Part shown: positions 7,504-53,196 of the stretch, in pieces
Numbering within the stretch: the first letter of the stretch is position 1
Layout: each line of letters begins with the position of its first letter
Virus record (IMG/VR): IMGVR_UViG_3300010370_002417
Coordinates: 1-64,000 of that record
DNA from: a virus
DNA length: 64,000 nucleotides
Direction: 5' to 3' (one strand)
Notes under the pieces: generated by a model
Database searches by the model: none
What the model was told of the DNA's origin: nothing
What the model saw: only the letters and a program-made list of their open reading frames with translations
Translations under genes and position numbers: made by a program

Positions 7504-8213
7504 TCTTTCTTATCTCCAAGGATCTGCAACAGGCTCATGAATATATTGATGAAGTCGAGATAGAGCTGCAACGCACCAAACACACCAGCCTTCTCGCGCT
7601 CTACACCTTCGATTGTGTCATACGTTTCTTTGATGTTTTGCGTATCATAGGCTGTAAGACCCGTGAAGATAAGAACACCAAGACAGCTGATTGCGAAAGC
7701 AAACATAGAGCTCTGCAGGAATAGATTAATTAGTCCGGCGACTACCAATCCCATCGCTCCCATGATAAGAAACGATCCCATGCTCGTCAGATCGCGCTTT
7801 GTCGTGTAGCCGTAGATTGACGCGAGCCCAAACGTCGACGCGGCGATGAAAAACACTTGTGCGATACTTCCTAGCTTGAACACCAGAAAGATTGACGACA
7901 GCGATAGACCCATCAAAGCAGCAAATGCAAAGAGAGCCATCTGTGCGCTTCTAACAGTGAACTTCTCAAAGAAGAACGCAAAAGCAAAAGAAGCAGCCAG
8001 CGGAGCGAAGATGGCGATCCACTTGAACGATGTGCCCCAGATGAGCGCCATAAGAGTAGGATTAAAGTTGAGTCCCATTGCTACAAGACCACTGATACCC
8101 AAAGCAACAGTCATGTAGTTGTAGACCTGCAACATATGATTGCGCAGACCGAGATCATATGCTAGACGATCTGCTTCTGTCGGGATTGTGTTGAAGGGAA
8201 TGTAACCGTTCAT
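7500..8213 (-). CDS. Bax inhibitor-1/YccA family membrane protein
   Basis: About 7 TM segments; GLRNHMLQVYNYM, YGYTTKRDL, AYDTQ, ALQLYLDFINIF. Confidence 0.93.
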   Translation of the reverse strand: MNGYIPFNTIPTEADRLAYDLGLRNHMLQVYNYMTVALGISGLVAMGLNFNPTLMALIWGTSFKWIAIFAPLAASFAFAFFFEKFTVRSAQMALFAFAALMGLSLSSIFLVFKLGSIAQVFFIAASTFGLASIYGYTTKRDLTSMGSFLIMGAMGLVVAGLINLFLQSSMFAFAISCLGVLIFTGLTAYDTQNIKETYDTIEGVEREKAGVFGALQLYLDFINIFMSLLQILGDKKE

Positions 8214-8216
8214 CTA

Positions 8217-8816
8217 TTATCTCCTCTTAAAGAACATACCTGTACGTTGCATAAAAGGCTTTTGCATTGTCGATACTTCTCTGATCTTCATCGTCACGTC
8301 GTGATCATACTCCAATCCATACTTATTAAACACATCATGCCAGTATTCTTCTTCGCGACAATTAACATGATGATGACCAGGATAACCCGGCGGAGCAGCA
8401 GTTGCTACGACATATTTACAACGCGCGAAGTCCTGCATATAATTGTCTTGATACTTTTCTTCTACGTGTTCAAGAAACTCGACGCTCCAGCCAAGATCAA
8501 ACTCGCGAGTCCACTGTGTAGGACCAACTGTGTAGTCGTGAATCATAACGCGAACATCTTGTGGGCGCTCGACAGTCCAGTCGCCGTCAACGCCTACTGC
8601 ATCAAGCCCGCGCATCTGTGCCAACTCAACCATACCGCCAGGACCGCATCCAATATCTAGGAACGTCTTTATATTATACTGATTGACAAGAAATGTCAAT
8701 ACCCCACGATCATTGTGGGTCTTGTTGAGATGACCGCCCAGATGCGAGGGAAGAGAATCTGGATTTACTTCTGATGTGTTCTGGGCTTCGATGCCACTTA
8801 CCGTTGATGTTGTCAT
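8217..8816 (-). CDS. class I SAM-dependent methyltransferase
   Basis: FLDIGCGPG, GVDG, WSVEFLEHV, GHHHVN; start uncertain because it overlaps the upstream gene. Confidence 0.82.
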   Translation of the reverse strand: MTTSTVSGIEAQNTSEVNPDSLPSHLGGHLNKTHNDRGVLTFLVNQYNIKTFLDIGCGPGGMVELAQMRGLDAVGVDGDWTVERPQDVRVMIHDYTVGPTQWTREFDLGWSVEFLEHVEEKYQDNYMQDFARCKYVVATAAPPGYPGHHHVNCREEEYWHDVFNKYGLEYDHDVTMKIREVSTMQKPFMQRTGMFFKRR

Positions 8817-9174
8817 TTATATAATCATCCCGTTCCAATACTTCATGCGCAAACTGTTCGCGCACTTCTTCATAATTTACGCGTCCCTTTGTACTGTGTA
8901 GCGAGATGATCTCTCGCCTGAACAAAGATTTGTTTGTTGTTTTGATTTGTTCTTTGAGAACTTCACTGGAACCGTAATATGATTTCCAGTCTGATTCTGA
9001 ACGTTGGCGACGGGACTTACCCTTCGCTTTTCTGACAGACCAGAAGTACTTGCGACCAATGTACTTCTGGCCTGCTGGTGTTGTGATAATATATACGAAA
9101 CCGTACGAGTTCCCGATATCCTCACTATCAAACTCTTTTCCGTCAAATGTCCACGGATTCTCATATGAAGCCAT
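8710..9174 (-). CDS. GIY-YIG endonuclease (DenA/Seg-like)
   Basis: GFVYIIT...KYIGRK, DWKSYYGSS, REII, NDNI. Confidence 0.82.
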   Translation of the reverse strand: MASYENPWTFDGKEFDSEDIGNSYGFVYIITTPAGQKYIGRKYFWSVRKAKGKSRRQRSESDWKSYYGSSEVLKEQIKTTNKSLFRREIISLHSTKGRVNYEEVREQFAHEVLERDDYINDNINGKWHRSPEHIRSKSRFSSLASGRSSQQDPQ

Positions 9175-29882: not shown

Positions 29883-30915
29883 TTTCATCTCCAAGGATAG
29901 CACCATGGGCGATGGAGTATCGTTCTTTGATATACTTAGCAAAGTCTGTTTCCTTGAACATCGTCTTCCAGAACTCGCCGTTGTCTTCGATATCCGAAGC
30001 TCTCATGTTCGGCGCAAGGACTTCTCCAGTCTCTTTGTCTACCCTAGCATACCACCCATTTTTTGGCTTAACAATATAACCGCCATCCAGAGCAACGTCA
30101 AGTAAACCGCTCCAGCGATTAATGCCACCTTCAAATGAAACGCTAATAGGGATCTTTGACTTTTCTTTGACATAACGACTCTTCTCCACGTTGATAACGA
30201 AGTGATATCCTTGGATACCTTCAGAATCCTTATCTTGCTGACGACCAAGAATCCAGATGTTGTCTGAGCCGTAGTACGAGCCAGTGCCGCCACCAACGAT
30301 ATCCTTCGGGAACATACCAATCTCTTTGTAGGTATGATTGACAACAGCCATAGGAATATCTTTGAGAGTGAGATAAGGAGTGATCATACGGAACAGCGAC
30401 TTGAGCTGCTTCGCACGAGACATATCTGCGACAGATTTTTCATTGAGCGCGTCTTCGACTTCCTTCTTAGAAGCAAGATTACCAATCGAGTCAATGACAA
30501 TCATAACATGATCGCCGCGCTCCAGCTCTGTGAGCTGTTTCATTATGTCGAATTTGAGTTGTTCGACGTCAGTGATAGGAGTATGCACAACAGAGTCAAA
30601 AGGAATACCAAAGGTATTAAAATAGGACTGAGGAGTACCAAACTCAGAATCGTAAAAAAGTATAACGCCATCTGAATACTTCCTTAGAAAGGCTGAAGCC
30701 ATAAGAAGCGCAAATCCAGTCTTAAAATGCTTAGACGGACCTGCAAGCATTGTAAGCCCAGGAGTCATTCCGCCATCAATGCTACCAGACAACGCAACGT
30801 TGATCATGGGAACTGTGGTTGGAATGACGTCTTTCTTTGTGAAAATCTTAGAATCTTCAAGAGTGGCTGTAAAAGCGATTGTACTATTTTTAATCAGTTT
30901 TTCTTTGAGCGACAT
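29875..30915 (-). CDS. uvsX: RecA-like recombinase
   Basis: AGPSKHFKT, YDSEFG, IDSIGNLAS, VVNHTY, GGGTG; promoter at 30934-30962. Confidence 0.97.
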   Translation of the reverse strand: MSLKEKLIKNSTIAFTATLEDSKIFTKKDVIPTTVPMINVALSGSIDGGMTPGLTMLAGPSKHFKTGFALLMASAFLRKYSDGVILFYDSEFGTPQSYFNTFGIPFDSVVHTPITDVEQLKFDIMKQLTELERGDHVMIVIDSIGNLASKKEVEDALNEKSVADMSRAKQLKSLFRMITPYLTLKDIPMAVVNHTYKEIGMFPKDIVGGGTGSYYGSDNIWILGRQQDKDSEGIQGYHFVINVEKSRYVKEKSKIPISVSFEGGINRWSGLLDVALDGGYIVKPKNGWYARVDKETGEVLAPNMRASDIEDNGEFWKTMFKETDFAKYIKERYSIAHGAILGDENE

Positions 30916-30944
30916 AATTCACCTCCAACATGAATACTATCATA

Positions 30945-31766
30945 CTAAGCATAAGTTGTCAAGTTTTCTTTCTCGACTTTGATCTCTTTCCAGATATCAC
31001 CATCAGTTGTTACAGCTCCTACAGTTCTTATGTCACGACTGGCTGCAATGATAAGAAGAACAGCCAGAGGATCGATGACTAGTACAAGCAGAATAATCAT
31101 GATACGTATAGCAGATTCTAAATCCTTCTCAGAATCAGCGCCATATATCAGTTCTGCGACATAACGTATAGGACCGACTTCATTTCTAATCTCGCGAGTA
31201 GCCTTCATCAGTGGCGCTTTCTCGTCGAGCAACTTTTCGATATTAGTTTGCGCGTCTTTGATTTCAGCAGCTATGGTGTCGCGCTCTTTCTTTTGCTGAT
31301 TGCGTATCTGTAATGCAGTTTGAGCGCGATTGTTTCTGTCTATGATACTATCTATTGCTCGATCTAACTGTCCAACTTGTTGTTCTGCTTTCGTGATGCG
31401 CGCACGCTCGCGCGTGAGCGAGCCATCTATTCTTTCTATCTTGGCTGCAACTTCGCCACTCGGAGCAACTTGATCTAGATGCGCTTTGGATAAGAACCCA
31501 AAGATACCCATGCTTGTGATCAGCATGAGAATGAATAATGCGCTTACGAAATATGTTTTCATCAGAAACGGAACGTGCTTCCAGTTTCTGTATAGCCATG
31601 ACGCAAGGATTATTTTTCCGAACTCCAACGTGCCGCCAAGAATGACGATCGCCCAGAATGCTCCTGCGAAGATAGCTGTTAGACCTGTGACTGAGTACCA
31701 CGCAGCGACAACGGATAATGCTATCCCTGTTGCCATAATCAACCAACGATCTAAGTTAAGTGCCAT
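30945..31766 (-). CDS. membrane protein with long coiled coil
   Basis: 3 N-terminal TMs, ITSMGIFGFLSKAH, coiled coil, GPIRY, C-terminal TM with DPLA. Confidence 0.75.
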   Translation of the reverse strand: MALNLDRWLIMATGIALSVVAAWYSVTGLTAIFAGAFWAIVILGGTLEFGKIILASWLYRNWKHVPFLMKTYFVSALFILMLITSMGIFGFLSKAHLDQVAPSGEVAAKIERIDGSLTRERARITKAEQQVGQLDRAIDSIIDRNNRAQTALQIRNQQKKERDTIAAEIKDAQTNIEKLLDEKAPLMKATREIRNEVGPIRYVAELIYGADSEKDLESAIRIMIILLVLVIDPLAVLLIIAASRDIRTVGAVTTDGDIWKEIKVEKENLTTYA

Positions 31767-31935
31767 CGTGATCTTTTAGTAGCATCTTGGATGCTTCTAC
31801 CCATAGACGGACCGAAAGGAGATCATGGTATCCCGCAGTTCCATCATACAGTTCGACAACCATTTTTGCCACTTCCAGATCGCGTCCGTGCCACGTTAGG
31901 AAATCTTTATAGTTTTCTTTTGTTACTTCAAACAT
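31756..31935 (-). CDS. 59-aa hypothetical protein
   Basis: MFEVTKENYKDFLTWHG...DHDGT fills the gap and overlaps both neighbours. Confidence 0.6.
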   Translation of the reverse strand: MFEVTKENYKDFLTWHGRDLEVAKMVVELYDGTAGYHDLLSVRLWVEASKMLLKDHDGT

Positions 31936-32149
31936 TGATCTTAGACATCTTTCTTCGACCTATGGTTTCGTTAACTCGAGCGCGGATCTGTGCATTTTCC
32001 CAGGTCCAGCACTCGCCAGTGTCATCCTGAAACACAACCCACATCAAATCATTTTCCATACCGTAGTCAATAAGAAAGTGAGCCATAGCCCGACCCTTTG
32101 GTGTCATCAAAGGAATCGGTGGATCAATTCTTGTAATCGTACTCTGCAT
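31928..32149 (-). CDS. conserved phage hypothetical protein
   Basis: PPIPLMTPKG...IDYG...GECWTW...NETIGR; GAGG SD. Confidence 0.75.
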   Translation of the reverse strand: MQSTITRIDPPIPLMTPKGRAMAHFLIDYGMENDLMWVVFQDDTGECWTWENAQIRARVNETIGRRKMSKINV

Positions 32150-32150
32150 A

Positions 32151-32519
32151 TCATCCTCTAGTTATTTTCAACACAGCATCCAACTGACGCTGACAGACTT
32201 CGCGCCTGTTAGGCCAGTGAATCCATTCTTTATCTGCAGTCTTCAATAGATTATTCAGCAGCGGAACTACGATAGCTTCAAGCTGTCTGATCTTATCGCG
32301 CATTTCTGTTTCTGTAGCACTGGAAGCTACGTTGTTCTGCATTCTGCTAAACTCAACAAGAATGCGATCTAGCTTTTCATCAACAGAATCGAAGCGATCG
32401 TCGAGATCGATATTGATAACTGGCTGCTCAACAGGAGCTGGCTTCGCGAAGTCTGGCTCATCGACTGCGGAGAACCCATAGTCTTGTCCAAGATATTCAG
32501 CAGGGATATTCACAGTCAT
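32151..32519 (-). CDS. conserved hypothetical protein
   Basis: DYGFSAVDE...PLLNNL...IHWPNR; coupled to gp43. Confidence 0.75.
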   Translation of the reverse strand: MTVNIPAEYLGQDYGFSAVDEPDFAKPAPVEQPVINIDLDDRFDSVDEKLDRILVEFSRMQNNVASSATETEMRDKIRQLEAIVVPLLNNLLKTADKEWIHWPNRREVCQRQLDAVLKITRG

Positions 32520-35011
32520 GCAAAGAAATCCTCCAATGTACTTTGCTTTTCTTCGTGCCAGTTGATCACTTCAAGAATAGCGCGCAACGGCTCGAGAAAC
32601 GTCTTGTCAAATTGCATATCGTAATCAATGTACTTCTTCAGATTGAACTCTGCCGGCAGTTCATTGATCGCAGATATCACATTGTCATGTAATGGGTTTG
32701 GCATCTTGAGATAGGAGAAGCGAATCTTCTCACCATCTTTGATATACTCATACTTCTTATTCAGTTTCATCTCGCGAATCTTGCTGTTATACAACAGAGC
32801 GCCGCGCACATGAATCGGAATAGACTTTGTTTCCTTGGCATATTTAGTTAGATTCTGCACAGATCTTGGGAATGATACTTCTTCGAACGGCAGCTGGTTG
32901 AACTCGCTTCTAAAGTTCGCTATGAAATCCTGCAGCGTTGTTTCATCCTTCGACATAATAATGTTCAGCGCGTCGATGATAGCCTGACGACAAACTGCAG
33001 GAGTCGACGACTTAACTGCTTCGATACCCATGATCTTCAGTTTGGGCTTTGCATATCGCACGCCCTCAGAGTCATGAACGTTGAGGATATATCGTTTCTT
33101 CGCAGTCCAGATACCGCGGTCAGCAATAACCTCGCGCTTCATGTTCATCTTTTGCGCGAACGCCCCCATCCGAATAGCAAGATCCGAATAGATGCGATCA
33201 ATAACTGGTTCGATCTTCTCGCTAGCCATCTTATCAAGGAACGAAACAATCCGATCTTTCGAAACTTCTGAGTCGTTATCCGTCTCTCCTCGTTCTTCAA
33301 ACACCATGTGTACAAGTCTATCAAACGAGATGTAAAGTGAATCCGTATCCGAAGCAATGACATAGTCTTCTCCGTCAGTCTTGAGTAGTTTGTTCAGATA
33401 TTTGTTTATCTCATTCTCAGCCCAGCGAATAGAAAGCTGACCGCCGAGAGTAATCGCTGTAGCCTGATCAATATCAAAGAAACGAAAGTGAGGATTACCA
33501 ATCGCGCCGTAAGCTGAGTTCAACTGAACTTTCTTAGCGAGCTGCATATTTTTGTATCGAGATATATCTTTAGATGCTTGCTTATCTTTCGTCGCTTCGT
33601 ACTTCTTCTGCGCTTCGATCATCTTGTTTTTATATACAACACGATCGTTGTACATACGTTCCATGATCTCAGGTAGGAATCCTTGCTTGTCTTTCTTGAA
33701 GAAGCATCCATTCGCAGCCATGCCATACCCATCCGGCACTTCAGGGAATATGCCATCGAGCAGTTCATCGACGCTGGTCTGTGCTCTCTTTCCACGCAAC
33801 AACGTTTCAGGACTGATGTTGTACTGCATGATAAGATGCGGATACAGAGAGTTCAAGTCGAATGACATAACCCAGTTGTGTGCTCCGACCTGCGGATCTT
33901 TGACGAACGCGCCAACATACGCTTCGTCTTTGCTTCCGCCGCCAGTCAGCGGAACTGCAATCTTCTGCTTCCATAGATGATTGTGAATGATGACGTCCCA
34001 CATACGAACCTGTGTGAACACATCGAGCAATGTGACTTTCGCATCGTACGCGAGCGCGAGAGCCATGTCAATCAGTTTCATCTTGTCATCGAGCTTTTCT
34101 ACGAGCTCAACGTCTCGAATGTTATAGTCGATGAATCGCTGGAAATCTTTTACATAGAACTCATGCAGCGTGTCGTAGTCATATGATAGCTTTCGTTCGC
34201 CTAGCTCAATGAAGCCAATGTGATCTAGCTTGTATGACTCTTGCTGAGAATATGTAAACTTCTGATACATCTCAAGATAGTCGAGAGTCGCGATGCCGCC
34301 GATGTTGAATACAGTTTCTTCTTTGAACTTCGTACGAACCTGACGCTCTTTGAAGATTCTCCACGGTGAGAATCGCTTCGCTTCGCTCTCGCCAATGATT
34401 TGATTCATGCGACGAATGAGATACGGAATATCGAAGAACGTGACGTTCCATCCAGTTACGACATCAGGGTAGCCGCCTTCAGCCCACTCGCTGAGGAAGC
34501 GGGTGAGCAGTTCTCTTTCGTTGTTGCATTGATGATAGAACACATCGTTGCGCGAAGGAACATAGTCGCCATATCCCCACACATGGAATATGCTATCTTT
34601 CTTCAGCGTGATGGCTGTAACTTCGTGGAGTGCTTCGTCTGCGCTTGGAAAGCCAAACTCTGAGCTCACCTCGATATCGATGTACGCGACTTTGATTAGA
34701 TCACGATCGTACACGACTTCTTCTGGATATTCTTCGTTCAGATACGCATAGATAAATCGTGGGAGACCATAGACCTTGAAGTTAGATACATCTTCGTATC
34801 TATTGATAAAGTCTTTAGCCTCTCGGATAGAATCAAACTGCATACTATCCAGGGGCACGCCACGGATATCGCGCCAACCTGCATTCTCACGCTTGGAGGG
34901 AACAAACATCTTTGGCTTGTAGGGAATCTTTTCAGAGAAGGCTTGTCCGCGATCATAGCCGCGGACAAGAATGTTGTTTCCGTACTCGAGAGCATTAGTA
35001 TAGAACTTCAT
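32516..35011 (-). CDS. 43: family B DNA polymerase (T4 gp43-like)
   Basis: DIE, GWNVTFFD, YNIRD exonuclease motifs; FDLNSLYP, KVQLNSAYG, SDTDS, KKRY. Confidence 0.98.
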   Translation of the reverse strand: MKFYTNALEYGNNILVRGYDRGQAFSEKIPYKPKMFVPSKRENAGWRDIRGVPLDSMQFDSIREAKDFINRYEDVSNFKVYGLPRFIYAYLNEEYPEEVVYDRDLIKVAYIDIEVSSEFGFPSADEALHEVTAITLKKDSIFHVWGYGDYVPSRNDVFYHQCNNERELLTRFLSEWAEGGYPDVVTGWNVTFFDIPYLIRRMNQIIGESEAKRFSPWRIFKERQVRTKFKEETVFNIGGIATLDYLEMYQKFTYSQQESYKLDHIGFIELGERKLSYDYDTLHEFYVKDFQRFIDYNIRDVELVEKLDDKMKLIDMALALAYDAKVTLLDVFTQVRMWDVIIHNHLWKQKIAVPLTGGGSKDEAYVGAFVKDPQVGAHNWVMSFDLNSLYPHLIMQYNISPETLLRGKRAQTSVDELLDGIFPEVPDGYGMAANGCFFKKDKQGFLPEIMERMYNDRVVYKNKMIEAQKKYEATKDKQASKDISRYKNMQLAKKVQLNSAYGAIGNPHFRFFDIDQATAITLGGQLSIRWAENEINKYLNKLLKTDGEDYVIASDTDSLYISFDRLVHMVFEERGETDNDSEVSKDRIVSFLDKMASEKIEPVIDRIYSDLAIRMGAFAQKMNMKREVIADRGIWTAKKRYILNVHDSEGVRYAKPKLKIMGIEAVKSSTPAVCRQAIIDALNIIMSKDETTLQDFIANFRSEFNQLPFEEVSFPRSVQNLTKYAKETKSIPIHVRGALLYNSKIREMKLNKKYEYIKDGEKIRFSYLKMPNPLHDNVISAINELPAEFNLKKYIDYDMQFDKTFLEPLRAILEVINWHEEKQSTLEDFFA

Positions 35012-35017
35012 ATTCTA

Positions 35018-35046
35018 ATACTATCATATCAAGACGCGGTTGTCAA
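35018..35046 (-). promoter_or_regulatory. sigma70 promoter, leaderless geometry (gp43)
   Basis: TTGACA-17-TAGTAT-6 nt-ATG, no SD. Confidence 0.8.
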
Positions 35047-35373
35047 GATCCCTTTCTTGGGTAATACAAGTCCAGAACCAAAGTTCTGATTGTATGTGTT
35101 CTCGATCTGTTCGTCTGGTTCGTATGTGAAAAGAACATTGCGCGGATCCAGAATGATTTCTTTGTTCCTAGCCATAGGAATGAAATCAATCAGAGCCATT
35201 TGTGTCTTTCCAGTTGCCGTAGGCTGCAACAGAACAGCTGCAGGTTTCAGCACTCTAATCATATTACCAGCGACACCAACCTTTCCGATGATCTCGTCGC
35301 CATTCAGCAAACGAAGCATCATAATGGTTGTACCAACATCTTGACTAGCAGCATTCACAGGATTCACATTCAT
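35029..35373 (-). CDS. conserved small beta-barrel (Sm-like) protein
   Basis: LRLLNGDEIIG...YNQNFGSGLV pattern, typically found upstream of gp43 in T4-like phages. Confidence 0.75.
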   Translation of the reverse strand: MNVNPVNAASQDVGTTIMMLRLLNGDEIIGKVGVAGNMIRVLKPAAVLLQPTATGKTQMALIDFIPMARNKEIILDPRNVLFTYEPDEQIENTYNQNFGSGLVLPKKGILTTAS

Positions 35374-35382
35374 ATTATTTCC

Positions 35383-35865
35383 TCACTTCGTTACGCCCGC
35401 CATCTTCTCCTGACCACGGGACCAAGCAGCAATACCAAGAACAGCACCCATTGCGAGATGGAACAGACCAGCGCCTTGCAGCGTGAGAGGATTCCATTGC
35501 GTGAGTGGCATCTTTACCATGACTTGTGCGACCGACCACATAATTGGAAAGACCGCCATGTCGAGTACGCAGATAACCATATAACACCAACCCATTGCTG
35601 GACGCCATTTCTTCGCCATCCAGTCTTCATTCTGCTTTGCGTTTTCCGCTTCCCACTTCTTCTTCTCTAGTTCGATAGCAGCAAGTTGTGCTGCTTCTGA
35701 TAGTTGTGGAGCAGCAGAAGCGACTGGACCAGAAGAACGAGTAGTGGTCTCTACATATGTAGTTGGAATAGAAGCAGCTGCACCTTTCGTAGCAGCAGGA
35801 ATCTGATCCATAGCAGGTTTCGCGACGATTGGCTCGTCGTCTGTTGTAGTTCCGAATTTTGGCAT
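35383..35865 (-). CDS. putative holin
   Basis: WRPAMGW, TM segments, LGIAAWSRGQEK; directly after the endolysin. Confidence 0.7.
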   Translation of the reverse strand: MPKFGTTTDDEPIVAKPAMDQIPAATKGAAASIPTTYVETTTRSSGPVASAAPQLSEAAQLAAIELEKKKWEAENAKQNEDWMAKKWRPAMGWCYMVICVLDMAVFPIMWSVAQVMVKMPLTQWNPLTLQGAGLFHLAMGAVLGIAAWSRGQEKMAGVTK

Positions 35866-39908: not shown

Positions 39909-40847
39909 TCATTTGAACTCACAATCGATCATAATCTGCGTCATGCAGGCTGCCAAGTTGATTTCTTGGTCAACAACGAACGCAGCCTTGTACTGATAGT
40001 CAGCCAAGGCTAGAACCAGTGGCGGAATCGACTCTGGCTTCATAATTGCGCTTGCTGCGTCATACAGCTTACGAAATAGCACATTCACGTCCATGCTGGC
40101 GTTCTGGGCGACCCATTTGCGCATATTCTCGAACTCGCGTCCCTTTAGATACTTTACCAGCTCCTTGATCTCCACGTTGTCCACGGAGGCAAGAATGCCA
40201 GCATCAATCGCGCCACGGGCAGAATACCGCTGCAACTCATTGATAACTCGACGCCAATCAGGGAAGTGCTTCATAATCACTTCGGCTAGGACTTTCTTGT
40301 CATAGCCAACGTTCTCCTGATCCAGGATCCCGCATGCGCGCGCGAGGAACTGTTTAGCCAATTCGCCCTTTTCCTTGCTGCCAATCTTAAACTCTACGAC
40401 AGAGCAACGAGAGTGCAGAGGATCAATGATACGATTAACAAAATTACAAGTAAGAATGAATCCACAATTTGATGAATATTCTTCCATAAAATTGCGGAGA
40501 GCAGGCTGAGTGCTATTCGCGTTGAGATAGTCAGCCTCGTCAAGGATGACATACTTTCTTCCTCCGCCGAAGGAAACTGTCGCTGCGAAGTTACGAATGT
40601 CCGTTCGCAACGTATCAATGTTTCCATTCATTGATCCGTTAATGATAATGTAATCTGCTTCGATCTCCTCCAGCATAGCACTAGCAACAGTCGTCTTACC
40701 AACGCCTGCTGTGCCAGAGAGAAGTAGATTGGGAATGTTGCCGTCTGCTACAAACTGCTGGAATGTAGCCTTGAGATCCTCGGGCAGAATGCAATCTGCG
40801 ATCTTACGAGGACGATACTTTTCAACCCACAGAAATTCTTCGCGCAT
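39909..40847 (-). CDS. 44: clamp loader large subunit (gp44-like)
   Basis: WVEKYRP, GTAGVGKTT, LDEAD, SRC. Confidence 0.97.
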   Translation of the reverse strand: MREEFLWVEKYRPRKIADCILPEDLKATFQQFVADGNIPNLLLSGTAGVGKTTVASAMLEEIEADYIIINGSMNGNIDTLRTDIRNFAATVSFGGGRKYVILDEADYLNANSTQPALRNFMEEYSSNCGFILTCNFVNRIIDPLHSRCSVVEFKIGSKEKGELAKQFLARACGILDQENVGYDKKVLAEVIMKHFPDWRRVINELQRYSARGAIDAGILASVDNVEIKELVKYLKGREFENMRKWVAQNASMDVNVLFRKLYDAASAIMKPESIPPLVLALADYQYKAAFVVDQEINLAACMTQIMIDCEFK

Positions 40848-46843: not shown

Positions 46844-46884
46844 TATTTACTAATGATAGCGGGTTGGCGGCGAGTTGTCAAGGG

Positions 46885-47109
46885 TCAATGCGCCTCAAAA
46901 TAGCGGATATCCGCTTCCGTGGTATACGGATCCTCAGCTTGGATCTGGCGAATCAGCTCTTCGCGGCGCTCGCGCAAGGCATCGATCTGTTTCAGCAGAT
47001 GATCAGCCAGCGGATAGGCACCGAATTTCATAGCCATGTCATAATTAGACTCCAGCTCGTCGAGGGTGGTGCGAATCTGATTGATGTTCATTTCGTTACC
47101 TTTCATCAT
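46885..47109 (-). CDS. early hypothetical protein
   Basis: Own promoter at 47116-47144; in-frame starts at 47109 and 47091. Confidence 0.75.
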   Translation of the reverse strand: MMKGNEMNINQIRTTLDELESNYDMAMKFGAYPLADHLLKQIDALRERREELIRQIQAEDPYTTEADIRYFEAH

Positions 47110-47121
47110 ATGTTCATTGTA
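47099..47121 (-). repeat. 23-nt promoter/leader repeat TACAATGAACATATGATGAAAGG
   Basis: Identical copy at 47478-47500; variants at 47734-47756, 44313-44335 and 1610-1632. Confidence 0.9.
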
Positions 47122-47140
47122 GTAAGTTGGCGGGCAATTG

Positions 47141-47488
47141 TCAAGCGCCCGTCCAGCGAACGTTCGACAAGGCCTGCAGCACATTGCCACGGGCGAAGTT
47201 CTTCGCGGGGGCGCGCCAGCTAGCCGCCTTGAGAATGTCGCCGCGCTTGAACTTGCCATCGTCGTCCAGCATAATGAAAGAATGAACGCCAGTCTGCGGA
47301 CCGGTGATCACCTTGATGAACTTACGATGGATCTCGTATCGAATCGAGGCGTCGAACTCTTGGATCATTTCAGCGCGAGTGGGTGACATCGGGCTATATC
47401 CAGCATAGTCAGCCTTGATGGCTTGAATGTAACGTTCAACGCCAGCCTTGAGGTCAGAAGCGATAGTCATGCCATTTCCTTTCATCAT
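47141..47488 (-). CDS. conserved early phage protein
   Basis: VHSFI...GDILKAASWRAPAKNFARGN; promoter at 47495-47523; starts at 47488 and 47470. Confidence 0.8.
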   Translation of the reverse strand: MMKGNGMTIASDLKAGVERYIQAIKADYAGYSPMSPTRAEMIQEFDASIRYEIHRKFIKVITGPQTGVHSFIMLDDDGKFKRGDILKAASWRAPAKNFARGNVLQALSNVRWTGA

Positions 47489-47519
47489 ATGTTCATTGTA
47501 CACGGTGGCAGGCTGGTTG

Positions 47520-47744
47520 TCAATACCGTTCCGACCACCGATCGTTTTCTTCGTCTTCGTCGAGAAAGAATTCCGCCAGCTGACCCAAGAAAATGATCAG
47601 GTCTCTGGTATCGCCCTTCTTAATGTTTTCGCTCGGCCAATCAAAGCCGGCTTTGACCGCCGAAGGCTTGAGCATAAGTATGGCTTCGATCAAGTCGTTG
47701 CGGTTGGTTCGGGTCTTGTAACTCATGTGGCTTCCTTTCATCAC
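47520..47744 (-). CDS. early hypothetical protein
   Basis: Promoter at 47751-47779; starts at 47744 and 47726. Confidence 0.7.
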   Translation of the reverse strand: MMKGSHMSYKTRTNRNDLIEAILMLKPSAVKAGFDWPSENIKKGDTRDLIIFLGQLAEFFLDEDEENDRWSERY

Positions 47745-47868
47745 TTTTTCATTGTATGGGGTATCGGGTTGGTTGTCAAACGAAAAAACCCCCTGTAAAA
47801 ACAGAGGGTTATAGCTAAGTCACTGATATTATGGGGAAAACTTTTTTGTAAAATCTTGGTTACGATCG

Positions 47869-48552
47869 TTAAGGATTTTTTAACGCAATAAAGCCGGTAA
47901 AGGCATGATTTTGCCAGAACGAATCGACTACCTTGAAGCCGGCGGCTTTACACATATCCACGATTTCCTGCCTGGTGCTAGGCTTAGTCATGTGGCGTAG
48001 TTGTCGTTCCTTATCCATAATGTCTTCTGTCGTAAATGTCTTGCGCTTGAAATCGTAGTAGGTAAATGTGCGGATCTCGTGTACGCGCACGTTCTCTGGC
48101 ATAGTCTTTTCTGCGAACACGAACGCGCCTCCAGGTAGCAAACCGTCGTGAACTTTACTTACAACTTCTTTGCGATCCTTGAACGACATAAACTGTAATG
48201 TAAAGATTGAAGTGACATAAGAACAGTTTCTAAAGTCATAGTTTAAGACATCGCCGCGATAGTATGTCAAATTCTCATATTGATTTTCGTCAGCGATGAA
48301 TCCCTTCCAAAAGTCTTCTTCGATCTCGATACCTTCATAGATGGCGTCTGGAGCAAATGTGTTCTGTGCGATCATGCTCTTAAGCATCTTGCCAGTAGAA
48401 CAACCAATATCAACGACAGAGGTATTGTTCTCGACGAAATACTGCGAGATGTCAACGACGTCTTGCCAAAGATGACCATATCCACGGATCGATCCGTCAA
48501 TGTGATTGTCAAAGCCTTCTTCGCGTGTAGCAAACGTGAACTTACCTGTCAT
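47869..48552 (-). CDS. CmoA-like (carboxy-SAM synthase-like) SAM-binding protein
   Basis: FTF...FDNHI..SIRGY, DIGCSTG, FTLQF, GGAFVFAEK, NHAFTGFIALK; ATGA-coupled to the MTase. Confidence 0.8.
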   Translation of the reverse strand: MTGKFTFATREEGFDNHIDGSIRGYGHLWQDVVDISQYFVENNTSVVDIGCSTGKMLKSMIAQNTFAPDAIYEGIEIEEDFWKGFIADENQYENLTYYRGDVLNYDFRNCSYVTSIFTLQFMSFKDRKEVVSKVHDGLLPGGAFVFAEKTMPENVRVHEIRTFTYYDFKRKTFTTEDIMDKERQLRHMTKPSTRQEIVDMCKAAGFKVVDSFWQNHAFTGFIALKNP

Positions 48553-49688
48553 GACAATTCCTTGTAGGGCTTCAAAATGTTTTCGTAAATGCAAGTAGAA
48601 AGGGCGCACATCATCTTTGGTGCAACCATGCGACCGATGCGTTCAGCCTGCTGATCGAACGTACCAGTCAATTCATAATCATCAGGTAAGCTCATGATAC
48701 GCTTCATTTCTTTGATTGTCAACTTTCTATTCGCCGCGTAGTGCATAACACCACTGGCGCTTCTTTGCTGACCCATCTGTGTGAGCGTAGGAGATGGCTT
48801 GTTGGGAGCTGGTCGTTTCATATTGAAGCAAGACGTCTTACCGTTGACTGGTCCTGGCTTCAATACTTTGTGAGGATTGAAAGGCATTGTTTCCACGAAT
48901 TTCTTCTGGAAACTATTTTCGCAGAAGTCCAGGAGCATTTGAACTTCTGCTGGATCATTATCGATCCCTTCTATTGCGCTGGCGATTGATACACCATCGC
49001 TTGTCGTAGGCATTGGAAATACTCGACTCGCGAGTTGATACTCCTCCAGCCCCAGAGCCGCGAACACATCGTTCCTGACTCCCACGAAGAATGTTCTCAT
49101 ACGACTCTGGGGCACCCCAAACTTCGAAGCATCCATGACTTGATACACCATCTTATAGCCTGGTGTAATGCGTTCGAAGCCTGTTACGAAATCTCTTAGT
49201 TTCTCAATAGCAGCTCGGGCTGTGATTCCCTCGACGTTTTCTGCTATAATGACTTTAGGTTGGATATCCTCTGCAATCCTTATATATTCCAGGAACAAGT
49301 CTTCAATGTTCTTTACAGTCTTGCCATCGGAATATTTTTTCTCTCTGTTCCAACCTTTCTTCCCTTTACCAGAAGATGAAAATGCAGAACACGGTGGAGA
49401 TCCATCAAGAATATCAAGCTCGCCTGGATTTAGATTACCGATCTCGAGCAGATCTTTTCCTTTTATATTCTTGATATCTCCAAGGATTACCTTCGTGTCG
49501 GGAAAGTTGCGCGAATAGGTAGCCACTGCTTCCTCAACGAACTCGTTGATCGCGACAACTTTCCCGCCTGCAAGCCGATATCCAGTTGAAGATCCGCCAC
49601 CGCCTGCGAATGTTGAGACCACCGTAAACAGTTCGCGCGCGGACGAGCGTCGCACATCTTCAATAGTATATGGCTGATAGTTGCTCAC
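48549..49688 (-). CDS. C5-cytosine DNA methyltransferase family (candidate carboxymethyltransferase)
   Basis: Motifs I FAGGGG, IV GSPPC, VI ENV, VIII QSRMR, IX RKLTIKE, X IGRMVAP. Confidence 0.9.
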   Translation of the reverse strand: MSNYQPYTIEDVRRSSARELFTVVSTFAGGGGSSTGYRLAGGKVVAINEFVEEAVATYSRNFPDTKVILGDIKNIKGKDLLEIGNLNPGELDILDGSPPCSAFSSSGKGKKGWNREKKYSDGKTVKNIEDLFLEYIRIAEDIQPKVIIAENVEGITARAAIEKLRDFVTGFERITPGYKMVYQVMDASKFGVPQSRMRTFFVGVRNDVFAALGLEEYQLASRVFPMPTTSDGVSIASAIEGIDNDPAEVQMLLDFCENSFQKKFVETMPFNPHKVLKPGPVNGKTSCFNMKRPAPNKPSPTLTQMGQQRSASGVMHYAANRKLTIKEMKRIMSLPDDYELTGTFDQQAERIGRMVAPKMMCALSTCIYENILKPYKELS

Positions 49689-50215
49689 GCAGTCCTCATT
49701 CTTCGTTCAGCTTTGTTCTTGAAGTTCTTCGCTTGTTCTAGATGAAACCGATTAGCTCTTTGCTGGAATGTGATTCCATTGAGATGATCGTACTCGTGCT
49801 GAAACACGCGAGCAGTATATCCTTCATAACGTGTAGTGCCAGCTTCTCCATCCCATCCACGATAGCGGACACGAATACCGCGCGATCTTTTGATTTTGAT
49901 GAACATCCCAGGATACGTCAGACATCCTTCTTCGTATATCACTTTTTCTTCATCGTAGTCTAGGATGATTGGATTGAATACGCCAATGATGCTTGCTGGA
50001 TCGCTGAAATTGCCAATAACAAAAACGCGAGTCATGATTCCTAGCTGACAAGCAGAAAGACCGACACCTTTGTTGGCTATCATCGTATCGCGCAGAAGCT
50101 CGTACAACTCTTTGGCGTTGTAGTGAGTTCCGTCTTCTGTCGTGTATCCCGCTTCAAAGTCAAACTCTGGGCAGATTTGCGAAAGCCTTGGATCGTTACC
50201 TTTTAGAAGTTCCAT
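49685..50215 (-). CDS. def: peptide deformylase
   Basis: GVGLSACQ, EGCL, QHEYDHLNG. Confidence 0.95.
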   Translation of the reverse strand: MELLKGNDPRLSQICPEFDFEAGYTTEDGTHYNAKELYELLRDTMIANKGVGLSACQLGIMTRVFVIGNFSDPASIIGVFNPIILDYDEEKVIYEEGCLTYPGMFIKIKRSRGIRVRYRGWDGEAGTTRYEGYTARVFQHEYDHLNGITFQQRANRFHLEQAKNFKNKAERRMRTA

Positions 50216-51918
50216 TACACTATCCTACTAAAATTCTTCTGCTTTGTAAAGCGAATAACGTTGCTAAACTTATCGTGTAGAACATCACCCTTATGCGAGA
50301 TGACAAATATATTCGTTTGTTCCAAATTATGAATGAGCTTCAGAAACTCATCACAGCCATTTGCATCAAGCGACGCGTCGAATACTTCGTCTAGAATCAG
50401 AAGATTCGTGTTGGCGCTGTTCTTCATGCGAGCGATTGAACGCCACGTGAAAAGAAGCGCAAGATCGATACGCATCTTTTCGCCTTCACTGAAAGAATCG
50501 TAAGTAAAGTCGTCGCGATGGCGCGATAGGATCTTTTCTTCGAACGACTCGTTCAACTCGAACTTCACGAAGAAGTCCATGGCGGCGAGGTATTTATTCA
50601 CCAAAGTATTGATGACTGGTACATACTGTTTTATGATGCGAGACTTGATGCCGCTATCGCGAAGGATAACAGTAGCAAGATCGAACATTTCACGCTCTTC
50701 GAGAATAACATTCTTCTTTCCTAGAAGTGCAGTATAGTCTTCGTTCAATTGTTTGATGACAGATTCGTTGAACGCTTCTGTCTTTTTCTCGGCGTCATTT
50801 ATTTCTTTAGTCCAAAGAGAGATTTCTTTTTGATGGGTCTTGATGGAAGACTGTAGCTCCCGTAGAACGTTTTGCTTTGCACTAATCTCACGTTGTATCC
50901 GCGAGATAGAATCCAACCGATTCTCCGCTTCGCGTAAGTTGTCTTGTAACGACGCGAGCGCGATATCAACATCTGTGATAATCTTTTCTTTCTCATCGAT
51001 TTTCTCACATTTTATAGTTTCGTCAATATTCTGCGTGCATGTAGGACATTCATCGTTATCGTGATAGAACTTGATAGTTTTGCGCGCATTACTCTTTTTC
51101 TTCTCAAGATTAGATTCGAGATTGAGTATCTTTTGAATTCTTGCGCTTACAGTTTCTTTGTCGTCGATTTGCGTAAGAAGATCATTGATTTCAGCTTCAA
51201 CAGTAGCAGCTTCCGCTTCGTCACGCAGGAACGATGCGTTAGCTGTTTCAATACGCTTACGATATTCATCGATCTTCTCGCTCTTTTCTTGCGCCAAGTC
51301 GTTGCGCAACTTCTCTTGCAGTTTGATGCTTTCGCTTGTGTTGGATATATCGTTTTCGTTGAGCTTATATGTTTCGCGATTAGTAGCAACGCGATCTTTG
51401 AGCAACAAAGCCATCGAGGAAAAGACGCGGATATCTAACAAATCCTCGATGACTTCGCGTCGCACATTGGTTGTAAGTTGCATGAACGGAACGAAAGAAG
51501 AAGATCCCAGGATAACTATCTGGGTGAACGACTTCATGCTCAACTTAAGAATGTTCTTCTCAAGCATTTCCTGATAGTCGCGCATAGCTGCGTCTTGATC
51601 GATCAGAGATCCGTCTTCATAGATCTCAAACAGATTTGGCTTGATACCACGCTTGATTATGTACTGATGATCGTGTGTGTTGAACTCAATCTCAACAACA
51701 ACATCGCGTCCATTGACCGAGTTGATAAGTTGATCTTTCTTGATCTTACGGAATGGCTTGCCATACAAACCAAAACACAATGCGTCGAGCATTGTAGATT
51801 TGCCAGCGCCGTTCTCACCAACGATGAGCGTAGAGTCGTTCTCGTTTAGCTTGATTTCTGTAAATGCGTTGCCAGTCGAAAGGAAGTTCTTCCAGCGCAC
51901 CTTTTTGAAATGAATCAT
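50215..51918 (-). CDS. 46: recombination ATPase subunit (gp46, Rad50-like)
   Basis: GENGAGKST, CPTC hook, FSEGE, LDEVFD, ISH. Confidence 0.97.
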   Translation of the reverse strand: MIHFKKVRWKNFLSTGNAFTEIKLNENDSTLIVGENGAGKSTMLDALCFGLYGKPFRKIKKDQLINSVNGRDVVVEIEFNTHDHQYIIKRGIKPNLFEIYEDGSLIDQDAAMRDYQEMLEKNILKLSMKSFTQIVILGSSSFVPFMQLTTNVRREVIEDLLDIRVFSSMALLLKDRVATNRETYKLNENDISNTSESIKLQEKLRNDLAQEKSEKIDEYRKRIETANASFLRDEAEAATVEAEINDLLTQIDDKETVSARIQKILNLESNLEKKKSNARKTIKFYHDNDECPTCTQNIDETIKCEKIDEKEKIITDVDIALASLQDNLREAENRLDSISRIQREISAKQNVLRELQSSIKTHQKEISLWTKEINDAEKKTEAFNESVIKQLNEDYTALLGKKNVILEEREMFDLATVILRDSGIKSRIIKQYVPVINTLVNKYLAAMDFFVKFELNESFEEKILSRHRDDFTYDSFSEGEKMRIDLALLFTWRSIARMKNSANTNLLILDEVFDASLDANGCDEFLKLIHNLEQTNIFVISHKGDVLHDKFSNVIRFTKQKNFSRIV

Positions 51919-52103
51919 TTATTCCCAATAATATCACAAGGATGATCTTGGTCATCCCATCTGTATCGACCAACAAGATTTAAGAGAAGGCGCGTCTTAG
52001 TTTCAGCGCATTCAAATATCTGTACGCCTTGGCGACGTTCAATATAAATGTATTCTTTGCCTTCACGACTTATATAGGTTTCGCCAGCAACGAATGTCAT
52101 CAC
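51915..52103 (-). CDS. hypothetical protein
   Basis: 62-aa ORF coupled to gp47 and gp46. Confidence 0.65.
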   Translation of the reverse strand: MMTFVAGETYISREGKEYIYIERRQGVQIFECAETKTRLLLNLVGRYRWDDQDHPCDIIGNK

Positions 52104-53161
52104 TCAGTTTCCATTTGAAGAGCTTCATTATATAACGAACGCATGAGCTTGTCAAGTTTTTCATTATCTACATTAGACTCAATCGTCTTGATATATTTCG
52201 ACAGAATCGTAAGAGTATCTTCAGCCTCATTCAATAATTCTTGCTCGTCGATAGAATCCATGTTGCGATGATCTTCGACGATAGTAACTTCAATTGGGCT
52301 GGCTTCGTAGAGCTTCGTAGTAAACAAATCAAACGTGAACGGATTATCTTTGTTAGATACAATGAGTTTTACGTATGCGCCAGCATACTTACTGAAGTCG
52401 CGTTCTAGGATTTCTTCTGTCGTCTTATCTTTATCGTTGTACCACACTTTGCGAAACATCTTGTAAGGATTTTCTATAAACGCCAACTCACGAGTTTCAG
52501 TATCGAAGATATGGAATCCCTTAGGGTCATCGTAGTCGCTCCAAGTAAATTCAGCATGACTACCAAGATAATGGATATTCCCACTAGAGGAACGATGATG
52601 ATAATGACCAGAGCATACCAAATCAAACCTATCAAAAATAGACCGGTCATCACCGTGACTGACAGGACTGCCTCGATACATTTCGAAGCCAGCGATTTCA
52701 AGATGTCCCATGCAGATTTGAGCATTGGTCTTCCTTATGAGATTCATCGCGTGTTCACGATTGTCTTCGCAAATCCACGGCATAAACAAAATCTTGACAC
52801 CATCGAACTCGACTTCCGTCGCTTCTTCATACAGAATGAAGTCGTCTAGATACGCTTCTCTAATGGCGTTGACTGAATTCGTATTCTTGTAATAGGTGTC
52901 GTGGTTTCCGAGGGTGAGATGTGGCTTGATGCCTCTTGCGTGTAGAGGTGAAATAAAATCCTCACGCAGGCGTCGCGCTGTATAGATGTTAATGTATTTA
53001 CGGCGATCAACAAGATCACCGAGATGGATAACAGTAGAGATGCTATTATCATCGATATACGGAAAGAAAACATTATCTAGAAACTTCTTGTTGTTGTCAA
53101 GGAACGCAATCTGATCGTTGCGCACACCCCAGTGGGTGTCAGTGATAATAGCAATTTTCAT
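52100..53161 (-). CDS. 47: recombination nuclease subunit (gp47, Mre11-like)
   Basis: DTHWG, HLGD, GNHD, GHYH. Confidence 0.96.
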   Translation of the reverse strand: MKIAIITDTHWGVRNDQIAFLDNNKKFLDNVFFPYIDDNSISTVIHLGDLVDRRKYINIYTARRLREDFISPLHARGIKPHLTLGNHDTYYKNTNSVNAIREAYLDDFILYEEATEVEFDGVKILFMPWICEDNREHAMNLIRKTNAQICMGHLEIAGFEMYRGSPVSHGDDRSIFDRFDLVCSGHYHHRSSSGNIHYLGSHAEFTWSDYDDPKGFHIFDTETRELAFIENPYKMFRKVWYNDKDKTTEEILERDFSKYAGAYVKLIVSNKDNPFTFDLFTTKLYEASPIEVTIVEDHRNMDSIDEQELLNEAEDTLTILSKYIKTIESNVDNEKLDKLMRSLYNEALQMETE

Positions 53162-53167
53162 AATGTA

Positions 53168-53196
53168 ATTCTATCACGCTACCTTAGAGTTGTCAA
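53168..53196 (-). promoter_or_regulatory. sigma70 promoter, leaderless geometry (gp47)
   Basis: TTGACA-17-TAGAAT-6 nt-ATG, no SD. Confidence 0.85.

Follow-up and report, generated by a model that had tools for sequence, protein, structure and literature searches.

Two overlapping genes at positions 47,869 to 49,688 of a viral DNA stretch (IMG/VR record IMGVR_UViG_3300010370_002417, positions 1 to 64,000; this whole 64,000-nucleotide stretch is referred to here as the window) raise the question of whether a phage, by means of a homologue of a DNA cytosine C5 methyltransferase and a homologue of CmoA, makes carboxy-S-adenosylmethionine (carboxy-SAM, or Cx-SAM) from S-adenosylmethionine (SAM) and uses it to install 5-carboxymethylcytosine (5cxmC) in its DNA. 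Judging by homology, the pair, called cmoX and cmoA here, very probably constitutes a two-gene CmoX-CmoA DNA modification module in an uncultured T4-like myophage of fresh and estuarine waters.

A system of this kind has been shown experimentally for a cyanophage, Synechococcus phage S-B43 (PMC12783734; Yang et al., Nat Commun 2025;17:281, December 2025). In S-B43, SpCmoA converts SAM and prephenate to carboxy-SAM, as seen by liquid chromatography-mass spectrometry (LC-MS), with a kcat of 2.33 per s, faster than E. coli CmoA; the transferase SpCmoX takes only Cx-SAM, not SAM, and writes 5cxmC at GC sites; and CmoY is an ATP-dependent ligase that joins glycine to the 5cxmC carboxyl (PMC12783734). 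DNA modified by SpCmoX resists HhaI, and in S-B43 virion DNA 5gcxmC, the glycine amide, is present and 5cxmC absent (PMC12783734). Arg350 of SpCmoX replaces Asn304 of M.HhaI and contacts the Cx-SAM carboxylate, and the R350N mutant is inactive; in M.MpeI N374K, cited in the same paper, a basic residue in place of the motif X Asn likewise permits the use of Cx-SAM (PMC12783734). A survey in that work, which mined IMG/VR v4 and other sources using two CmoX criteria (SPPC and R350), counted 5,615 CmoX candidates versus 2,251 ligases (PMC12783734). The original prediction for our locus, made from the DNA letters without database searches, had pointed to both M.MpeI N374K and a natural cyanophage example, and both statements agree with this paper. 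Its expectation that the locus would extend known chemistry did not hold, the system being published and widely mined from IMG/VR.

The transferase gene cmoX and its motif X arginine

48549..49688, minus strand: cmoX, DNA cytosine C5-carboxymethyltransferase homologue, 379 residues (PF00145, PDB 8YF3, key residues, dN/dS)
48630..48632, minus strand: codon CGC of the motif X residue Arg353 (IGRMVAP), which corresponds to Arg350 of SpCmoX and Asn304 of M.HhaI (direct reading and 8YF3 alignment)
49389..49400, minus strand: SPPC motif (Ser97-Pro98-Pro99-Cys100) in motif IV with the catalytic Cys nucleophile, aligned with SpCmoX S95-P96-P97-C98

The cmoX product is a full-length match to the C5 DNA methylase family (Pfam DNA_methylase PF00145, E 3.7e-51; TIGR00675 dcm, E 1.2e-42). 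When compared with the SpCmoX crystal structure (PDB 8YF3) by phmmer, residues 6-373 align over the full length with an E-value of 3.7e-103, and the identity to SpCmoX is approximately 49% by tblastn. Read directly on the minus strand, codons 48638-48618 are ATC GGT CGC ATG GTT GCA CCA, i.e., I-G-R-M-V-A-P, so that the Asn of a dcm-type motif X (GNAV or GNSV) is not present, and in the alignment Arg353 falls on Arg350 of 8YF3. Both the complete C5 methyltransferase with IGRMVAP in motif X and the placement of its Arg at the cofactor-proximal Asn position, as predicted for this locus, are thus borne out by the direct reading, the family matches and the alignment. The cofactor contacts F25, E47, F48 and D69 of SpCmoX correspond to F27, E49, F50 and D71 of CmoX, and these residues, together with S97-P98-P99-C100 and R353, are invariant in nine CmoX homologues (this phage plus eight others). 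Since the published survey mined IMG/VR v4 and this protein carries both SPPC and the R350 equivalent, the contig is probably among the 5,615 published candidates.

The partner gene cmoA

47869..48552, minus strand: cmoA, carboxy-SAM synthase homologue, 227 residues, its ATG lying within the ATGA overlap (TIGR00740, 4GEK, SpCmoA)

The stop codon of cmoX (TGA, 48551-48549) overlaps the start codon of cmoA (ATG, 48552-48550) to form ATGA, which agrees with the coupling to a CmoA-like gene that had been proposed. In the open reading frame (ORF) list cmoA started at GTG 48609, which we rejected as an over-extension; the genes of relatives begin at the ATG. The best NCBIfam match of the product is CmoA (TIGR00740, E 1.9e-25), and its best PDB matches are E. 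coli CmoA (4GEK, E 3.3e-18, and 4IWN) and H. influenzae YecO (1IM8, E 1.2e-16). Against SpCmoA the protein aligns over its full length with 49% identity and an E-value of 1e-80. In E. coli CmoA, Y39, D62, G64, S66 and F137 are SAM contacts and E164 is conserved (PMC3663124), and all of these are identical in the phage protein.

We hold to the Cx-SAM and 5cxmC reading because of this strong homology to characterised enzymes, the position of Arg353 on Arg350 and the identity of CmoA to SpCmoA; the proposal that the phage makes Cx-SAM and installs 5cxmC is to that extent supported.

Search for a CmoY ligase

32297..32519, minus strand: junction of the DNA polymerase gene with the gene that follows it, where a cassette present in relative G001 is absent (blastn synteny, ORF comparison, bridging contigs)

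The window lies within a 77,258-base IMG/VR record, for which CheckV estimates a completeness of 37%. No CmoY ligase was found in the whole 77-kb record, whether the probe was Pfam PF00733 (Asn_synthase), SpCmoY, the CmoY-like protein of G001 (tblastn) or a PP-loop regular expression. One 14-bit ligase match at 40018-40092 (plus strand) runs antisense to a gene on the minus strand and was rejected as chance, and the sole SGGxDS motif in the record is likewise in an antisense frame. An ORF of CmoY size (273 residues, 30945-31766) showed no similarity to CmoY.

In relatives of this phage, the ligase gene is found either directly upstream of cmoX (the clade of loci L011-L015, including genome G003) or after the DNA polymerase gene (G001). 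The latter genome (157 kb, 90% complete) has approximately 76% nucleotide identity to the window and is fully syntenic with it by blastn. Its cassette after the polymerase gene consists of a 70-residue, very basic ORF and a 269-residue CmoY-like PP-loop ligase (locus L024, i.e., G001 60000-79999, at 8120-9131), and places the ligase gene approximately 16 kb from cmoX. The window includes both of these sites, and neither holds a ligase: at the second, the polymerase stop codon and the start of the conserved gene that follows share positions 32516-32519. Two long mismatch-free contigs from two public runs, one of which may be the source sample, bridge 32516-32519 with identical sequence, which argues that the cassette-free junction is not an assembly artefact. 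We would like to note that the public contigs over 30500-35500 include many short joints that, at 90% likeness, come from other strains, and that only the two bridging contigs were used. Among other phages, no ligase was found in relative G002 (78% complete) or in the complete genome of Synechococcus phage S-CRM01. As an observation in its own right, this indel, with the cassette present in G001 and cleanly missing from the window, may change the end product of the DNA chemistry from one close relative to another.

Proposed pathway and alternative explanations

In the pathway that we propose, CmoA would convert SAM and host prephenate to carboxy-SAM, after which CmoX would flip out the target cytosine, attack its C6 with Cys100 and, while Arg353 holds the carboxylate, move the carboxymethyl group of carboxy-SAM onto C5 to yield 5cxmC in phage DNA. 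With cmoX and cmoA closing a putative early operon (gp46, peptide deformylase (PDF), cmoX, cmoA) that would be read by the host polymerase and end at a terminator, the mark would be written on replicating DNA, and its probable use would be protection against host restriction enzymes. The chemistry, timing, target sequence and anti-restriction role are those that we infer from the S-B43 work.

Several observations weigh against this pathway, or against parts of it. The depletion of GGCC (observed/expected (O/E) ratio 0.48) would be needless if all GC sites were protected, and the target-recognition or variable region of CmoX (residues 206-320) is just 38% identical to that of SpCmoX, for which reason the GC target cannot be transferred from one to the other. 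The record represents approximately 37% of a genome, so that a ligase could sit in the remainder, and relatives are split in this respect, G001 and G003 being with a ligase and G002 and S-CRM01 without. CmoA scores 89.9 bits against an equivalog cut-off of 193.3 bits for TIGR00740, and 71.7 bits against a cut-off of 285 for NF011995; the rest of the phage CmoA clade, including relatives G001-G003, likewise falls under the equivalog cut-off. In E. coli CmoA, Arg199 forms a salt bridge with the carboxymethyl carboxylate. In the phage protein, Glu occupies this column according to both HMMER and MAFFT, within the stretch KERQLR.

Regarding the target, GGCC is the only clearly under-represented 4-base palindrome in the 77-kb record (53 seen, 110 expected under a Markov model), and GpC is over-represented there (O/E 1.23); both figures bear on the target at most suggestively.

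The Arg199 column had been raised at the outset as a caveat that the cofactor could be a different SAM analogue. The Glu is real, but SpCmoA, a proven Cx-SAM synthase, carries it too, in the stretch KEKELR, where Lys occupies +1 and Arg occupies +4. Throughout the phage clade position +1 is basic (Arg in this phage) and position +4, a helical turn away, is always Arg; either of the two is a candidate for the carboxylate-binding residue. Going by these alignments, the Glu would be a mark of the phage clade and not a sign of another cofactor. That CmoA makes some SAM analogue other than Cx-SAM, with CmoX transferring another group, would accord with the Glu and with the score below the equivalog cut-off, yet it strikes us as scarcely credible when SpCmoA, with that same Glu, makes Cx-SAM faster than E. 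coli CmoA (LC-MS, PMC12783734), when the CmoA of this phage has Arg at +1 as well as the invariant Arg at +4, and when the Arg of CmoX suits a carboxylate. We attach hardly any weight, too, to the reading in which a plain 5-methylcytosine methyltransferase of the Dcm type sits by coincidence beside an unrelated SAM methyltransferase for small molecules or RNA. It is true that Pfam and NCBIfam offer no name for the first protein beyond C5 DNA methylase, and for the second only generic methyltransferase domains with weak scores; however, the cofactor-proximal Asn is Arg, as it is in SpCmoX, an enzyme that does not take SAM, the best named match of the partner is CmoA, at 49% identity to a proven Cx-SAM synthase, and the cmoX-cmoA pair is kept and translationally coupled in all relatives, while the homologue in Methylophilales phage Melnitz, which lacks the Arg, also lacks CmoA in a complete genome. 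It is very unlikely, in our estimate, that CmoA serves mainly to deplete SAM against SAM-dependent host defences, or to supply Cx-SAM for uridine 5-oxyacetic acid (cmo5U) in host tRNA, with CmoX being secondary. SAM depletion by phage CmoA was raised as an open question by Yang et al. (PMC12783734), and a promoter-like site within cmoX could drive cmoA alone; against this, cmoA never occurs without cmoX in the relatives, its start overlaps the cmoX stop codon, and no CmoB homologue is reported for such phages (PMC12783734). Such a role could in any case be additional, not alternative.

A more serious contender, though one that we consider somewhat improbable, is that 5cxmC is merely an intermediate here, and that the 55-60% of the genome outside the sequenced part encodes a CmoY-type ATP-dependent amide ligase, which adds glycine or another amide, as in S-B43. 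Virions of S-B43 hold 5gcxmC and no 5cxmC (PMC12783734), the G001 ligase, at its distance from cmoX, illustrates that the ligase need not adjoin the transferase (in G003 and L011-L015 it lies beside cmoX), and only about 37% of the genome of this phage is in hand. On the other side stand the two ligase positions of the relatives, which are both in the window and both empty, the lack of a ligase in G002 and in S-CRM01, and the published count of 2,251 ligases for 5,615 CmoX contigs (PMC12783734). Because neither site has a ligase here and G002 and S-CRM01 also have none, we lean slightly toward 5cxmC as the final base of this phage.

Probable operon organization, expression signals and selection

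49685..50215, minus strand: PDF gene, upstream of cmoX and coupled to it, part of the context and not of the chemistry (PF01327, E 4.8e-32)
52127..52155, minus strand: sigma70-type promoter-like site, perfect TTGACA-17-TATAAT, upstream of gp46-PDF-cmoX-cmoA (consensus match only)
48694..48722, minus strand: promoter-like site TTGACA-17-TATCAT within the 3' part of cmoX, approximately 140 nucleotides upstream of cmoA (consensus match only)
47787..47810, minus strand: intrinsic-terminator-like hairpin with a 10-bp stem and a T run, 59 nucleotides past the cmoA stop codon (consensus scan)

All genes in this region are on the minus strand. The GTG start codon of cmoX overlaps the stop codon of the PDF gene (GTGA), and the PDF gene in turn adjoins a gene for a gp46-like recombination nuclease subunit. 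The order gp46, PDF, cmoX, cmoA, small ORFs and a CobT-like gene is kept in 10 related IMG/VR contigs, and the cmoX-cmoA pair in all 15 of the 15 related IMG/VR loci. Many CmoX genes are accompanied by ParB_N, PF02195 (PMC12783734); no such partner was found in the 77-kb record.

The promoter-like site at 52127..52155 suggests early transcription by the host polymerase, the hairpin at 47787..47810 is the probable end of the operon, and the site inside cmoX may provide extra transcription of cmoA. These promoter-like and terminator-like sites are consistent with an early operon, such as a post-replicative DNA modification would require. Another promoter-like site immediately follows the hairpin. 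More broadly, positions 46853-53196 of the window (minus strand) contain eight near-perfect TTGACA-17-TAnnAT sites, and the 6.6 kb around the operon holds 30 promoter-like sites versus 11.7 expected from shuffles. Several of the sites in 46853-53196 directly precede small ORFs that start with MMKG, in what appears to be a dense array of early promoters.

When CmoX was compared with five relatives, the ratio of nonsynonymous to synonymous divergence (dN/dS) was approximately 0.05, with synonymous sites near saturation, and its dN was 3-4 times lower than that of gp46, PDF or CmoA in the same relatives; from the low ratio and from a dN below that of the flanking genes, we conclude that cmoX is under strong purifying selection. 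CmoX is also the most conserved protein of its neighbourhood, at 90-99% identity across relatives versus 69-82% for gp46 and PDF and 74-94% for CmoA. The synonymous divergence of cmoX is lower as well (pS 0.52-0.68 versus 0.61-0.78).

Variation among relatives and other phages

Loci L011-L015 (e.g., L014:5131-8986; the 155-kb genome G003, complete with terminal repeats, is of this type) encode PDF, CmoY, two tandem CmoX proteins, CmoA and the CobT-like protein. Their CmoX paralogues are 65% and 56% identical to the CmoX of the window, and the variable region, at 50% and 33%, is the most divergent part, which suggests that two target specificities may be served by one Cx-SAM supply. At locus L017:6001-7272, the flanks are 75-82% identical to the window, but cmoX is only 57% identical and encodes 428 residues, with a 28-residue insertion after motif IV and eight extra residues in the variable region; by its sequence, this looks like an in-place replacement of the cmoX allele.

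Two cultured phages outside this group carry related genes. The Melnitz homologue (L026:3995-5212, MZ577097) is 43% identical and lies directly after the DNA polymerase gene; it has Leu at the Arg/Asn position (IGLMVAP) and a motif IV of SPPCPPFS, and no CmoA was found in the complete genome. Moraxella phage Mcat8 (L027:2887-4594, KR093632) infects Moraxella catarrhalis, is of temperate type and is 40 kb long; in it, a CmoX-like gene is followed by a CmoA-like gene, which is the order seen in the window. The Mcat8 CmoX-like protein is 42% identical, with SPPC and MGRMVAP, its neighbour matches TIGR00740 at E 9e-19, and both are annotated as hypothetical.

Virus lineage, host and habitat

A DNA-level search of cultured phages yielded only short and weak matches, so that protein-level comparison was required. 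The nearest cultured DNA polymerases, at approximately 51% identity, belong to Methylophilales phage Melnitz and to marine and freshwater cyanomyophages; the alphaproteobacterial phage of the original prediction finds no support. Neither this record nor the near-complete relatives G001-G003 contain psbA, and since these relatives lack it, the host is probably not a cyanobacterium. The cmoX-cmoA stretch was present (at least half of the sampled words) in 20 public runs from 16 studies, mostly freshwater, aquatic and estuary metagenomes.

Comparison with known systems

The discovery value of this locus is little, as its chemistry, key Arg, structure and distribution were published in December 2025. 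Ligase-less pairs, too, are already implied by the survey counts (2,251 versus 5,615) and by S-CRM01. Its value is modest and of another sort: the locus adds a well-documented case with no ligase from beyond the cultured cyanophages, in a lineage present in 16 public studies, whose close relatives differ by a CmoY cassette, a cmoX allele replacement or a cmoX duplication. Natural variation of this kind could guide the search for CmoX enzymes with new targets and serve to test how bare 5cxmC compares with its amide in the protection of DNA. We found no shown case in the literature of bare 5cxmC in a native virion, those of S-B43 carrying the glycine amide only. The full combination, i.e., a widespread T4-like group with a probably heterotrophic host, bare 5cxmC as the final base, a non-GC target and a CmoY cassette acting as a natural chemistry switch, is put forward tentatively, and we rather doubt that every part of it will hold together.

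The closest characterised system is that of S-B43. Like S-B43, this phage is a T4-like myophage with cmoX and cmoA close together; its CmoX is homologous over the full length and keeps SPPC, the Cx-SAM contacts and the carboxylate-binding Arg, and its CmoA is 49% identical. Unlike S-B43, in which the order is cmoA-cmoY-cmoX near the primase-helicase genes, the module here runs from cmoX to cmoA with an ATGA overlap, sits between the PDF gene and the CobT-like gene, has no CmoY in the 77 kb and encodes a target-recognition region of 38% identity. S-B43 is moreover a cyanophage, whereas near-complete relatives of this phage are without psbA.

The freshwater Synechococcus phage S-CRM01 (HQ615693, genes 149c and 148c, annotated only as methyltransferases) resembles our phage in having a two-gene module, with no CmoY in its complete genome; its CmoX is 48% and its CmoA 53% identical to those described here. 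Unlike our phage, it is a cultured cyanophage with cmoA preceding cmoX.

The engineered M.MpeI N374K shares with CmoX the basic residue at the motif X Asn, and only the catalytic core is related; in contrast to CmoX, it is a CG-specific enzyme of bacterial origin that depends on E. coli CmoA. The E. coli CmoA/CmoB pathway to cmo5U in tRNA has in common with the phage CmoA the Cx-SAM synthase fold and the SAM contacts (4GEK, E 3.3e-18). Unlike in that pathway, the acceptor enzyme of the phage is a DNA C5 transferase and there is no CmoB, and Glu stands at the Arg199 column, the basic residues being those at +1 and +4. The phage system belongs to the published CmoA-CmoX(-CmoY) kind, whose chemistry, key Arg, structure and spread through metagenomes are already known.

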